Numbered from the stretch's first letter, positions 27,332 through 44,137 are shown. The stretch: 44,479 nucleotides of DNA from a virus (IMGVR_UViG_2526164662_000049); one strand, 5' to 3'. Numbers and translations are program-made. Notes: generated by a model from the letters alone, not told the origin.

Positions 27332-27490
27332 AATGACGCCCTCTGGTGGTTTCTTAATAACTCACCACCGACGACGCCAATCGTCTGGTGGTGAACTGTG
27401 CAGGGTTGGCGTAACCGGGAAACCGACCGGCGCGGATCTCTCCGCCCCCACACAGCCCACCATAATTCAGATGTGCGCGTGCATACGACA

Positions 27491-27514
27491 ATAAAAAACA
27501 CGCTCGCGGCGTGT
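27491..27514 (-). terminator. tR'-like terminator downstream of late promoter
   Basis: minus-strand hairpin acacgc-cgcga-gcgtgt followed by TTTTTTATTG. Confidence 0.45.
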
Positions 27515-27575
27515 ATCTGTCGCGGTCTCTATCCAGGACGCCAATCCCGACGCCAGATTTTGCTGGCGCGTGAGG

Positions 27576-27605
27576 AATATAGCCCCGGATAACAGATTGA
27601 GTCAA
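27576..27605 (-). promoter_or_regulatory. late promoter pR'-like (TTGACT-N18-TATATT) immediately after Q
   Basis: sigma70-like elements read on minus strand directly downstream of Q stop, as in lambdoid phages. Confidence 0.45.
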
Positions 27606-29601: not shown

Positions 29602-29757
29602 TTACTCCTCAGGTTCGTAAGCTGTGAAGACAGCGACCTCCGTCTGGCCGGTTCGGATTCGTACCTCGCAGAGGTCTTTCCTCGTTACCAGTGCCGTCAC
29701 TATGACGGTTAAACAGATGACGATCAGGGCGATTAACATCGCCTTTTGCTGCTTCAT
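29602..29757 (-). CDS. hokD: Hok-family type I toxin (HokD/RelF-like)
   Basis: 51 aa MKQQKAMLIALIVICLTVIVTALVTRKDLCEVRIRTGQTEVAVFTAYEPEE; terminator hairpin downstream at 29513-29535. Confidence 0.8.
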   Translation of the reverse strand: MKQQKAMLIALIVICLTVIVTALVTRKDLCEVRIRTGQTEVAVFTAYEPEE

Positions 29758-30003
29758 AGCCTGCTTCTCCTTGCCTTTCGGCACGTAAGAGGCTAACCTA
29801 CATTTGTGAGACATAGATTGGGCCTCAGATTAATGTTAAGCGTCTTGCAGGACGCGTAATGTTAACTGGGGCTTTTCTCTATCTGCCTTTTGGTGTTCAT
29901 GCCTGAGACAGATAGCCTCAAGCACCCGCAGCAATTCTACTTAACTCTCCTTTTCCCGCAAACCGTTTTTACCCGATATGGGAATTCCCATATCGTAATG
30001 AAT

Positions 30004-35554: not shown

Positions 35555-35974
35555 ATGGAAAAAGAAAACGAAAAAATTGCCGCTAGTAGGCTCAATGACA
35601 AAATTGCAATGCGTCTTAAAGAGCGCAGGCAGAAGCTTGGTTTATCTCAAGGAAAACTTGCTGAAATCTGCGGATGGACGCAATCGCGTATAGGTAACTA
35701 TGAGGCGGGCAGCAGAAATGTTGGAGTGCATGACGCTGTCGTATTGGGAAAGGCTCTTGGCATATCTCCTCCTGAGCTCCTCTTTGGAGAACAGGAATCT
35801 TCTGAATTGTGGTTAAATGAATCCCAACGAAAACTTCTTGAGTTGTTTAACCAGCTACCGGGCTCAGAACAACAACGAATGATTGAGCTATTTGAAGTCC
35901 GGCTAAAAGAAATCGATGAGTATGTAGAAAAATATTTGAGAGGCAGGCTTAAAGATAATCCCCCACCGGAGTAA
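35555..35974 (+). CDS. prophage repressor, DicA/RacR-type HTH (no S24 peptidase domain)
   Basis: 139 aa; HTH LGLSQGKLAEICGWTQSRIGNYE; followed by terminator. Confidence 0.75.
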   Translation: MEKENEKIAASRLNDKIAMRLKERRQKLGLSQGKLAEICGWTQSRIGNYEAGSRNVGVHDAVVLGKALGISPPELLFGEQESSELWLNESQRKLLELFNQLPGSEQQRMIELFEVRLKEIDEYVEKYLRGRLKDNPPPE

Positions 35975-36003: not shown

Positions 36004-36030
36004 CAGCCCGCTATCAGCGGGCTTTTTTTG
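36004..36030 (+). terminator. rho-independent terminator after repressor gene
   Basis: hairpin cagcccgct-atc-agcgggct followed by TTTTTTT. Confidence 0.55.
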
Positions 36031-36056: not shown

Positions 36057-36100
36057 AAAACACATTTCGTGTTGACACAAGAAAACACATTGTGTTTAAT
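36057..36100 (+). promoter_or_regulatory. pL-like early promoter with operator palindromes
   Basis: AACACATTTCGTGTT and AACACATTGTGTT flanking/overlapping TTGACA-N17-TTTAAT. Confidence 0.45.
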
Positions 36101-36280
36101 AGGCATATCCAAACAACGCCCCACCAGAGAACGGCAGGACAATACCTCGAGTTATCCAGCCACTGAACAGGGCTAAGTAGCCAGCCTGAGGCATACGAAC
36201 ATGACGGCAGTTGTTGATTGATACAAAGCGCAGTAGATAAAACGTTCCGCCACCCGGCGTTAAGGGGAAATGAGGTCAAC

Positions 36281-36433
36281 ATGGATACTATCGATCTTGG
36301 CAACAACGAATCTCTGGTATGTGGCGTGTTTCCCAATCAGAACGGCACATTCACCGCCATGACGTATACCAAAAGCAAATCGTTTAAAACCGAAGCTGGC
36401 GCACGTCGCTGGCTTGCCAAAAATACCAGCTAA
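36281..36433 (+). CDS. YdaF-like small protein (DUF1391-like)
   Basis: 50 aa from MDTIDLGNNESLVCGVF with GAGGT RBS; Rac-like position. Confidence 0.45.
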   Translation: MDTIDLGNNESLVCGVFPNQNGTFTAMTYTKSKSFKTEAGARRWLAKNTS

Positions 36434-36829
36434 ACCATTTATTGGATTAATTCAATATTCTTGCTGTAGGGGTATAGCCGAGGCCACCAAAGCCCGGAGG
36501 TGGTGAAATAAAACCGGGCACAACACGAAGGCGCATTTCCGGTATCCATAAAGAGTCGGTCTTGTCTGTTAAATTTAAATGGTGGGAGTGCGCCTCCGGT
36601 TGTAAATAACGACATTGCTATGTGTAGTCTTTGGCGGCATCAGTTCTACTCCGTGGCTGCCCTGCCGCCCCTTTTTAAAGTGAATTTTGTGATGCGGTGA
36701 ATGCGGCTAAGCGCACGCGGCACAGTTAAAAGCATCAGTGTTATGGGTGGATTATCCGGCGTTAATTGTTAACTGGTTAACGTCACCTGGAGGCACCAGG
36801 CACCGCATCGACAAAATTCATTTGTAAAA

Positions 36830-37063
36830 ATGGAGATAATTATGATTGCTCATCACTTCGGAACTGATGAAATACCACGTCAGTGTGTGACTCCTGGCGA
36901 TTATGTTCTTCATGAAGGTCGGACATATATCGCCTCGGCAAACAATATTAAAAAGCGAAAACTTTATATTCGTAACCTGACTACAAAAACATGCATTTCT
37001 GACTGCATGATTAAAGTCTTCCTCGGTCGTGATGGTTTACCTGTAAAGGCGGAGTCATGGTGA
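36830..37063 (+). CDS. kilR: KilR-like cell-division inhibitor
   Basis: 77 aa ORF ([21 protein letters not shown]...); recalled similarity to Rac KilR; upstream of ydaE-like and racC. Confidence 0.55.
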
Positions 37064-41939: not shown

Positions 41940-42134
41940 ATGCGGTATGAAAAAGTCAAACCATGTCCGTTTTGTGGTTGTCCATCAGTAACGGTGAAAG
42001 CCATTTCAGGATATTACCGCGCAAAGTGTAACGGATGCGAATCCCGAACTGGCTATAGTGGAAGTGAAAAAGAAGCACTCGAAAGATGGAATAAACGAAC
42101 TACTGGAAATAATAATGGAGGTGTTCATGTATAA
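41940..42134 (+). CDS. ralR: Lar/RalR restriction-alleviation protein (type I toxin RalR-like)
   Basis: 64 aa MRYEKVKPCPFCGCPSVTVKAISGYYRAKCNGCESRTGY... Cys4 motif; matches recalled Rac RalR. Confidence 0.7.
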   Translation: MRYEKVKPCPFCGCPSVTVKAISGYYRAKCNGCESRTGYSGSEKEALERWNKRTTGNNNGGVHV

Positions 42135-42315
42135 AATTACTGCCACTATTGAAAAGGAAGGTGGCACTCCTACTAACTGGACAAGGTACTCAAAAACAAA
42201 ATTAACCAAATCAGAATGCGAAAAAATGCTCTCAGGGAAAAAAGAAGCAGGCGTTTCCAGAGAGCAGAAAGTAAAGCTGATAAATTTTAATTGCGAGAAG
42301 CTTCTGTCCTCGTGA
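42127..42315 (+). CDS. ydaC: YdaC-like protein (DUF1187-like)
   Basis: 62 aa MYKITATIEKEGGTPTNWTRY...; start overlaps ralR stop; Rac-like order. Confidence 0.5.
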   Translation: MYKITATIEKEGGTPTNWTRYSKTKLTKSECEKMLSGKKEAGVSREQKVKLINFNCEKLLSS

Positions 42316-43865: not shown

Positions 43866-43900
43866 TAAATACAATTAAAAAAAGACCGAATACGATTCCT
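43866..43900. repeat. attR core region (sdsR 3' terminus reconstituted at prophage junction)
   Basis: aaaaaaagaccgaatacgattcctgtattcggtcc; direct repeat of 1067-1098; partial third copy at 43793-43815. Confidence 0.5.
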
Positions 43901-43979
43901 GTATTCGGTCCAGGGAAATGGCTCTTGGGAGAGAGCCGTGCGCTAAAAGTTGGCATTAATGCAGGCTTAGTTGCCTTGC
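43877..43979 (-). ncRNA. sdsR: SdsR (RyeB) small RNA
   Basis: minus-strand sequence GCAAGGCAACUAAGCCUGCAUUAAUGCC... ending in terminator hairpin plus U-run; matches recalled E. coli SdsR. Confidence 0.8.
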
Positions 43980-44137
43980 CCTTTAAGAATAGATGACGAC
44001 GCCAGGTTTTCCAGTTTGCGTGCAAAATGGTCAATAAAAAGCGTGGTGGTCATCAGCTGAAATGTTAAAAACCGCCCGTTCTGGTGAAAGAACTGAGGCG
44101 GTTTTTTTATTGGAAATCAAAAGGCTATTTTAGGTAA

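Follow-up and report, generated by a model that had tools for sequence, protein, structure and literature searches.

Prophage context and organization of the region

The window analysed here (the whole stretch of 44,479 nucleotides recorded as viral sequence IMGVR_UViG_2526164662_000049) represents a complete Rac-like prophage, and genome sequence comparison revealed E. coli 2013C-4974 to be 100 % identical to it across the region studied. The genes are arranged in the order HTH repressor (35555-35974), DUF1391/YdaF-like gene (36281-36433), a gap of 396 bp, kilR (36842-37063), ydaE, racC and recE. An earlier note on this DNA had described the gap as a structured non-coding region between a ydaF-like gene and kilR, devoid of ORFs of 60 aa or more. 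The identity of both flanking genes was confirmed by matches to Pfam PF07151 and to Kil phrog_294, respectively. No ORF within 36434-36829 exceeds 58 aa (36439-36615, minus strand), and neither this ORF nor the next largest (30 aa) has a match in Pfam or PHROGs. The layout is the same as that of the Qin dicBF operon (dicA, the DUF1391 gene ydfA, ..., dicF, dicB), except that kilR replaces dicB; the DUF1391 gene of the window corresponds to ydfA, with which the Qin operon begins. Four RNA modules are located on the plus strand of this dicBF-like early operon. The following features were assigned:

36281..36433, plus strand: DUF1391 (YdaF/YdfA-family) gene (Pfam PF07151, 96.2 bits; RefSeq annotation of the identical locus)
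36484..36503, plus strand: hairpin ccacc (36484-88) / ggtgg (36499-503) in the spacer 3' of the DUF1391 gene
36520..36605, plus strand: long hairpin of ~22 bp with two small internal irregularities (predicted fold, window and Qin)
36567..36575, plus strand: candidate extended -10 promoter TGtTAAATT, ending 7 nt before g36582 (proposed from the sequence and the KilS 5' end)
~36582..36676, plus strand: sRNA gene, KilS/DicF mosaic, primary transcript of ~95 nt (Rfam DicF; K-12 KilS homology)
36603..36632, plus strand: single-stranded 5' arm AAATAACGACATTGCTATGTGTAGTCTTTG, corresponding to RprA nt 51-79 (27/29 positions, one gap)
36633..36676, plus strand: DicF-type stem-loop and intrinsic terminator, stem 36633-39 / 36663-69, T-run 36672-76 (Rfam, sequence)
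36670..36699, plus strand: 5' arm of the stalk (extended P1), predicted RNase III cut after t36690 by homology to the 72-nt DicF of Qin
36689..36813, plus strand: STnc100/PasD-type core (Rfam STnc100 and own covariance model)
36703-36718, plus strand: hairpin H1, loop UAAGC
36723-36729 (CAGUUAA) with H4 loop 36769-36775 (UUAACUG), plus strand: pseudoknot (pairing test)
36760-36782, plus strand: hairpin H4, including cgttaa (36760-65) / ttaacg (36777-82)
36786-36800, plus strand: hairpin H5, loop AGGCA, cctgg (36786-90) / ccagg (36796-800)
36801..36833, plus strand: 3' arm of the stalk, predicted partner cut near c36812/a36813; base overlaps GG of the kilR SD
36832..37063, plus strand: kilR, RBS GGAG 36832-35, start codon 36842, coding sequence to 37063 (phrog_294, E = 2e-36)

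The three local hairpins named in the earlier note (ccacc/ggtgg, cctgg/ccagg and cgttaa/ttaacg) were all located in the sequence at the coordinates listed above.

Upstream of the operon, past the repressor gene and its terminator (36005-36023), the sequence TTGACA, 17 nt, TTTAAT is found at ~36060-36105, with inverted repeats (acacatttcgtgt / acacattgtgt) on both sides. This element probably corresponds to dicBp and serves as the early-left promoter under control of the repressor; its absence from the list of the promoter scan is due to the T at position 2 of the -10 element. Elsewhere in the prophage, further Rfam matches above threshold are located at 27384-27582, 29752-29927 and 42133-42311 (all on the minus strand) and at 43873-44017. 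The families concerned are C4, c4-a1b1 and isrK (antirepressor-control module), sok and RalA, as well as SraC/RyeA and SdsR/RyeB at the far end of the window, where the latter two probably mark host DNA adjoining the integrase gene.

The proposal that the region occupies the position used by Rac-type phages for sieB could not be upheld, as the Rac prophage of K-12 possesses both sieB and the homologous region upstream of kilR. This K-12 region of ~370 bp is located directly upstream of kilR and is 88 % identical to window 36459-36829, with sieB placed between ydaF and the RNA region. The prophage of the window lacks sieB. Homology to K-12 Rac is missing from only the first 25 bases past the DUF1391 stop codon (36434-36458); at this junction, sieB and the sequence preceding it are found in K-12. 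Of the 5426 complete E. coli genomes, 4624 contain the spacer. Copies of dicF and spacer with 88–90 % identity were also found in MT713136.1 (Aeromonas phage AP1) and PP818812.1 (an Actinobacillus phage), which suggests E. coli prophage DNA in these assemblies or misassigned hosts.

A mosaic small RNA of KilS and DicF type

The Rfam search proposed in the earlier note yielded DicF above threshold and STnc100 just below. The DicF match (RF00039) is full-length, extends over 36619-36670 and scores 60.9 bits versus a gathering score of 48. Together with the relation to the K-12 sRNA KilS, of which the RNA encoded here is the counterpart, it substantiates one of the functions the earlier note had considered, i.e. 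an sRNA. KilS (b4833) is a 98-nt sRNA from K-12 Rac that was found by Hfq RIL-seq and verified by northern blot; it has been named 'kilR 5' UTR', and an independent promoter is considered possible (Bar et al. 2021). In the MG1655 annotation KilS is located at 1418405-1418502, the homologous place in Rac, and the alignment of Rac with the window projects it onto 36582-36676, with g36582 aligning to the mapped KilS 5' end. KilS is placed between ydaF/sieB and kilR, on the strand of kilR, with its end ~175 nt from the kilR start; the homologue has this orthologous position, upstream of the kilR ATG at 36842. Upstream hairpin and 5' arm are identical in both prophages, and an alignment of the two sRNAs showed near-identity over the 5' 50 nt and different terminator hairpins.

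The candidate extended -10 promoter TGtTAAATT is weak by consensus and has no -35 element. The promoter scan reported no plus-strand site by its own rule, TGtTAAATT not being listed; a promoter-like site on the minus strand (36780-36751) was disregarded, as it is one of two scan matches versus 2.5 expected. In Qin, CG is present in place of the TG of this element, and an internal promoter of Qin dicF was not found (PMC10448788). The window differs from Qin in its candidate own promoter.

The single-stranded 5' arm resembles RprA. Over the 29 nt immediately preceding the terminator hairpin the two RNAs hardly differ, with a local alignment score of 43 versus a maximum of 30 in 2000 shuffles, and this stretch covers the RprA processing site (processed RprA begins with AUUGCUG...; the processed active form consists of the last 47 nt). 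Cleavage at a predicted RprA-like RNase E site near 36613/36614 would yield a shorter form of the window sRNA with ~63 nt. The 5' two thirds and the terminator of RprA are unrelated to the window RNA, and the rpoS-pairing sequence AACGAAUU of RprA is broken by an extra C in the window. The arm stretch 36603-36632 accounts for the weak Rfam match to RprA (RF00034), with a covariance-model score of 30.5 bits, below the gathering score of 70. Membership in the RprA family was rejected on this score and because the shared part comprises only nt 51-79; by sequence, the RprA-like stretch is rather a shared module. A derivation of RprA as a whole from an STnc100-type RNA was likewise dismissed, since the 5' half of RprA shows no significant resemblance to the 5' part of the STnc100-type family (best score 19, equalled by 7 % of shuffles, p ~0.07). 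The literature search retrieved no paper tying RprA to DicF or KilS by sequence.

The terminator-like hairpin recognized in the earlier note (ggcggca, 36633-36639; tgccgcc, 36663-36669; T-run 36672-36676) is genuine, and its inner part was also found by the terminator scan. Its loop contains CUACUCCGU, complementary to the ftsZ SD region. The predicted duplex with ftsZ -36..+11 amounts to -31.4 kcal/mol (K-12 DicF, -28.4 kcal/mol), a value that exceeds shuffled sequences only modestly (fraction 0.036). The DicF-type stem is supported by covariation, being GGUGG/CCACC in copy L134. In contrast to the window with its DicF-type loop, the KilS terminator hairpin of K-12 Rac is perfectly paired (GGCGGCAUCAG...CUGAUGUCCGCC) and has lost the anti-SD loop of DicF; it scores 39.1 bits against the DicF gathering score of 48.

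Compared to DicF of Qin (RF00039), the window sRNA has the same operon position, 3' of a DUF1391 gene and 5' of a cell-division inhibitor gene, the same upstream hairpin of RNase III type, and the same stem-loop/terminator with a loop complementary to the ftsZ RBS. The downstream spacer is ~90 % identical over window 36630-36822. Differences concern the 5' arm (UUUCUGGUGACG in Qin, used for xylR and other targets; AUUGCUAUGUGUAGUC of KilS/RprA type in the window), a stretch of ~107 nt between hairpin and sRNA that is present in Qin and missing in the window, and the downstream gene (dicB in Qin, kilR in the window). Among copies from other genomes, two kinds of 5' arm (Qin type and Rac type) are freely combined with at least four kinds of terminator hairpin. 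By sequence, the window sRNA is accordingly a mosaic of a Rac-type (KilS/processed RprA) arm and a DicF-type stem-loop. This hybrid occurs in ~85–93 of the 5426 complete E. coli genomes and is annotated in none of them.

In functional terms, the sRNA would repress ftsZ translation in the manner of DicF, and its 5' arm would provide it with a target set other than that of canonical DicF. The DicF stem-loop would at the same time serve as a leaky intrinsic terminator.

Hairpins upstream of the sRNA

The hairpin at 36520-36605 is predicted in all but two of 44 distinct upstream variants. Rac and Qin types differ by compensatory changes (e.g., GAAGGCGCAUUUCC/GGGAGUGCGCCUCC versus GAAAGCGCACGGCG/CGACCGUGCGCUUCC), and with ~22 bp the hairpin reaches the duplex length of ~20 bp or more typical of RNase III substrates. 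The 190-nt DicF precursor of Qin is RNase III-dependent (PMC10448788), and its 5' end, Qin position ~1446, falls into the 3' arm of the upstream hairpin of Qin. Judged by sequence, the hairpin of the window is homologous to the RNase III-cut hairpin upstream of Qin DicF.

Further upstream, hairpins similar to ccacc/ggtgg (ACCACC...GUGGU) occur in a Shigella copy (L026) and in the L128-type copies described below. The segment 36469-36492 is 75 % complementary over 24 nt to DicF 36629-36652 (the 5' half of the stem-loop), and the two segments are paired when the precursor is folded to its minimum energy. A functional pairing was rejected, because K-12 Rac retains the upstream arm despite its different hairpin and no covariation is apparent; the complementarity is unexplained or due to chance.

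The STnc100/PasD-type core

The segment between sRNA terminator and kilR matches Rfam STnc100 (RF02076) with 44.3 bits (E = 5.7e-8), just under the gathering score of 47. Related embedded copies score 28–47.8 bits and stand-alone copies 70–89 bits, the latter constituting most of the matches listed. A scan of one genome per species for the 21-nt motif TCACCNGGAGGCACCNGGCAC yielded at least 120 loci across Enterobacterales. A covariance model built from 87 stand-alone members only recognized 36689-36813, and no other site in the 44-kb window, with a score of 73.5 bits (E = 2e-18) to which the 21-nt motif used for collecting the family members contributes in part. Besides the hairpins listed above, the core contains a 3-bp junction helix and a variable hairpin.

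The covariation analysis envisaged in the earlier note was based on an alignment of 109 distinct copies and on five helices, and it revealed a conserved, covarying fold. Paired cells account for 95.4 % versus 81.0 % in shuffles, and the covariation score is 0.421 versus 0.151 in shuffles (reached by 0 of 500) and 0.06–0.11 with slid partners. For the pseudoknot, which is not drawn in the Rfam STnc100 consensus line, a copy's own pairing averages -8.7 kcal/mol versus -5.3 kcal/mol for cross pairing (92 distinct pairings; p = 6e-34). What the inverted repeat forms together with the inner hairpins is thus the conserved fold of a widespread STnc100/PasD-type family and not a kilR-specific device.

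Elsewhere, members of the STnc100/PasD family are stand-alone, Hfq-associated prophage sRNAs; PasD and STnc100 are abundant, and PasD was found by Hfq RIL-seq. The 2026 preprint on PasD/STnc100 makes no mention of dicB, kilR, RprA or RNase III. The window copy shares with these RNAs the helices P1, H1 (UNNGC-type loop), the junction helix, H4 and H5 (AGGCA loop), as well as the invariant stretches GGUGAAU and UCACCNGGAGGCACCNGGCACC. In contrast to the stand-alone members with their own promoter and terminator, it is embedded in an mRNA, with the sRNA terminator before it, the kilR SD after it, and neither promoter nor terminator of its own. Moreover, P1 comprises 6–12 bp in STnc100/PasD and 19–30 bp in the window, and the H1 stem CCCCC/GGGG is changed to GCGGC/GC-CGC.

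Family members were also encountered in other arrangements. In Shigella flexneri (L026 and L117, ~3018-3424 and ~6515-6917) the long-stalk domain is followed by a small ORF (MLNVAIENQ...), which also occurs in L134 and L229, and then by isrK and C4 RNAs instead of a division inhibitor, so that the spread of the embedded domain is not tied to kilR or dicB. A third arrangement is found in L128 (~11000-11240, minus strand), L130, L135, L148 and ~20 more viral contigs, where an STnc100-like core with a 12-bp P1 is directly followed by UUUA, an RprA/KilS-type seed (UGCUGUGUGUAGUC) and a terminator hairpin. From its sequence, this arrangement would represent one fused sRNA of ~200 nt. Stand-alone STnc100-type units occur in tandem pairs 180–630 bp apart (L043, L056, L083, L122) and directly 5' of prophage tRNA genes (L087, L112, L009).

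The stalk as a putative RNase III processing site

The long-range inverted repeat reported in the earlier note exists, with its arms at 36682-36699 and 36801-36819, shifted by 5 and 2 nt from the positions given there. Pairing continues beyond these arms, so that 36670-36699 and 36801-36833 together make up a helix of 30 pairs interrupted by three single-base bulges. The base of this helix reaches as far as the two leading G residues of the kilR SD. The segment 36671-36860 folds at -63.2 kcal/mol (z = -4.56), with none of 200 shuffles being as good. A check for conservation of the inverted repeat in related prophages showed pairing to be kept by compensatory changes in L021, L167 and L161, and the long stalk is also maintained with unrelated sequence in L005 and L070.

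The length of P1 follows the context of the domain. Comparison of 181 distinct copies showed a P1 of 5–14 bp in those followed by a terminator, none of 64 reaching 16 bp, as opposed to more than 20 bp in 22 of the 28 copies directly followed by an ORF; the p-value of this association (9e-9) is overstated, as related sequences were counted as independent. The stalk of the window, with 19–30 bp, attains the duplex length of RNase III sites (~20 bp or more). According to two reviews of the work of Faubladier et al. (1990), it is RNase III that creates the 3' terminus of the 72-nt Qin DicF. On the end described there, it maps to AAUUUUGU/GAUG, 19 nt past the 53-nt end and in the middle of the 5' arm, with an uncertainty of a few nt. 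Since P1 length follows context, the stalk is conserved and the 72-nt DicF end lies inside the arm, the stalk is interpreted as a putative RNase III processing site. As reviewed, cleavage pertains to the Qin homologue and to the 5' arm, and the sites given for the window are predictions.

In RNase III stalks such as those of rRNA operons, T7 early mRNA and the lambda N leader, the flanks pair over about two helical turns, whereby the RNA between them is excised or a downstream message is set free. The enclosed RNA is here a 120-nt pseudoknotted phage RNA.

Cleavage in the window phage, promoter use, targets and the net effect on KilR are what we infer from these comparisons, and the course of events may be pictured as follows. 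The sRNA would have two sources, namely transcription from an extended -10 promoter of its own and maturation of operon transcripts by RNase III/RNase E. In transcripts reading through the sRNA terminator, the stalk would form with 19–30 pairs. An RNase III cut in the stalk would disconnect sRNA and kilR message, set free the enclosed ~120-nt pseudoknotted STnc100/PasD RNA as the fourth module, and leave a kilR mRNA with a 5'-monophosphate leader of ~29 nt. As to the net effect on KilR, one may guess that KilR expression would be uncoupled from, and dampened relative to, sRNA read-through.

Alternative explanations

The earlier note had also considered a cis-regulatory fold limiting KilR translation, an effect that the region may or may not have. 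In its strict form, this would render 36677-36833 a purely cis-acting 5' leader that hides the kilR RBS and has neither processing nor a function of its own. The base of the 30-pair helix indeed takes in the GG of the kilR SD, the equivalent arm in Qin covers the dicB SD (GAGGA), and the kilR SD is 63 % paired in the read-through model. However, the folding predictions give an SD pairing of 0.63 for read-through RNA but of 0.84 once the predicted cut has been made, and the drop in pairing required if such a fold limited KilR translation is not seen. In the accessibility test for SD and start codon, the SD was 0.6–0.8 paired in every construct with or without stalk, which speaks neither for nor against a translational switch; the pairing is similar or higher without the stalk (0.71–0.84). 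Furthermore, the core fold recurs in over 60 stand-alone units with a terminator behind each of them, a conservation that kilR does not explain; the embedded copies L005, L021, L026 and L167 end 10–20 nt before their own SD; and the reviewed literature on Qin reports RNase III cleavage within the arm. A purely cis-acting leader is therefore regarded as unlikely.

Improbable to a like degree is an STnc100-like domain that acts in trans as an Hfq sRNA, or as a platform for a protein or ligand, with a stalk that merely insulates its folding and is not cut by RNase III. The abundant sRNAs among its relatives (PasD, found by Hfq RIL-seq, and STnc100) and the strong structural selection on the core including the pseudoknot speak in its favour. 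Against it, a duplex of 22–30 bp is a classic RNase III substrate, inside which the 72-nt DicF end maps as far as described in the reviews, and the P1 of 6–12 bp in stand-alone members indicates that 20–30 bp are not needed for folding.

The region may further be viewed as a decaying recombination remnant without function, composed of a sieB deletion scar and a dead dicF copy. This would accord with the degenerate DicF hairpin of K-12 Rac (by Rfam score) and with the evident shuffling of modules among prophages. Yet the window copy scores above the DicF threshold and retains the anti-ftsZ loop, all helices covary across genera, the spacer is kept in the large majority of complete E. coli genomes (4624/5426), and KilS of K-12 is expressed and Hfq-bound (Bar et al. 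2021), rendering a mere remnant very unlikely.

Scarcely credible is the third option of the earlier note, an antitermination site of nut or put type acting processively on the early-left operon. The region does lie in an early operon downstream of a repressor-controlled promoter and beside a terminator, and put RNAs are multi-stem structures too. Yet the fold is 3' of the terminator that would have to be overcome first, and in 64 cases an intrinsic terminator is located no more than ~100 nt past a stand-alone member, although an antiterminator RNA would override such terminators. The Rfam search of the region matched no antitermination family, leaving a nut-like site with no support.

The reading preferred here is a string of RNA modules in a dicBF-like operon, consisting of upstream hairpin, DicF/KilS sRNA, RNase III stalk and STnc100/PasD RNA. 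It is considered probable, and it draws on the family matches, the conservation and covariation of the helices, the link between stalk length and context and the complementarity to ftsZ.

Conclusions

DicF, KilS, STnc100/PasD and RNase III stalks are each of an already known kind, and it is their combination that is unannotated. New with respect to the literature searched are the hybrid of RprA/KilS arm and DicF loop, the dicF-dicB and kilS-kilR spacer as an embedded STnc100-type domain, the pseudoknot, and the split between short and long P1; none of these points appears in the preprint on PasD/STnc100. Taken jointly, they allow for the tentative view, possible though somewhat doubtful, that the dicF-dicB/kilS-kilR spacer of ~85 % of the genomes is a stalk-excised STnc100/PasD RNA, and that phages shuffle RprA-seed and anti-ftsZ modules.

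The region accounts for the way in which a Rac-like prophage combines two FtsZ inhibitors, KilR as a protein and the other as an sRNA, within a single transcription unit and yet keeps them separable. It ties DicF, KilS and STnc100/PasD, which have been annotated or studied apart, into one modular system, and it concerns a stretch common to most E. coli genomes that has been left unannotated. If the joint view is true, the STnc100/PasD class would exist in two forms, stand-alone and excised in an rRNA-like manner, and a single phage RNA could act on RprA targets and on cell division. Should the mosaic sRNA carry both seeds, its carriers, including some O157:H7 and O55:H7, would possess a DicF with an altered target range.
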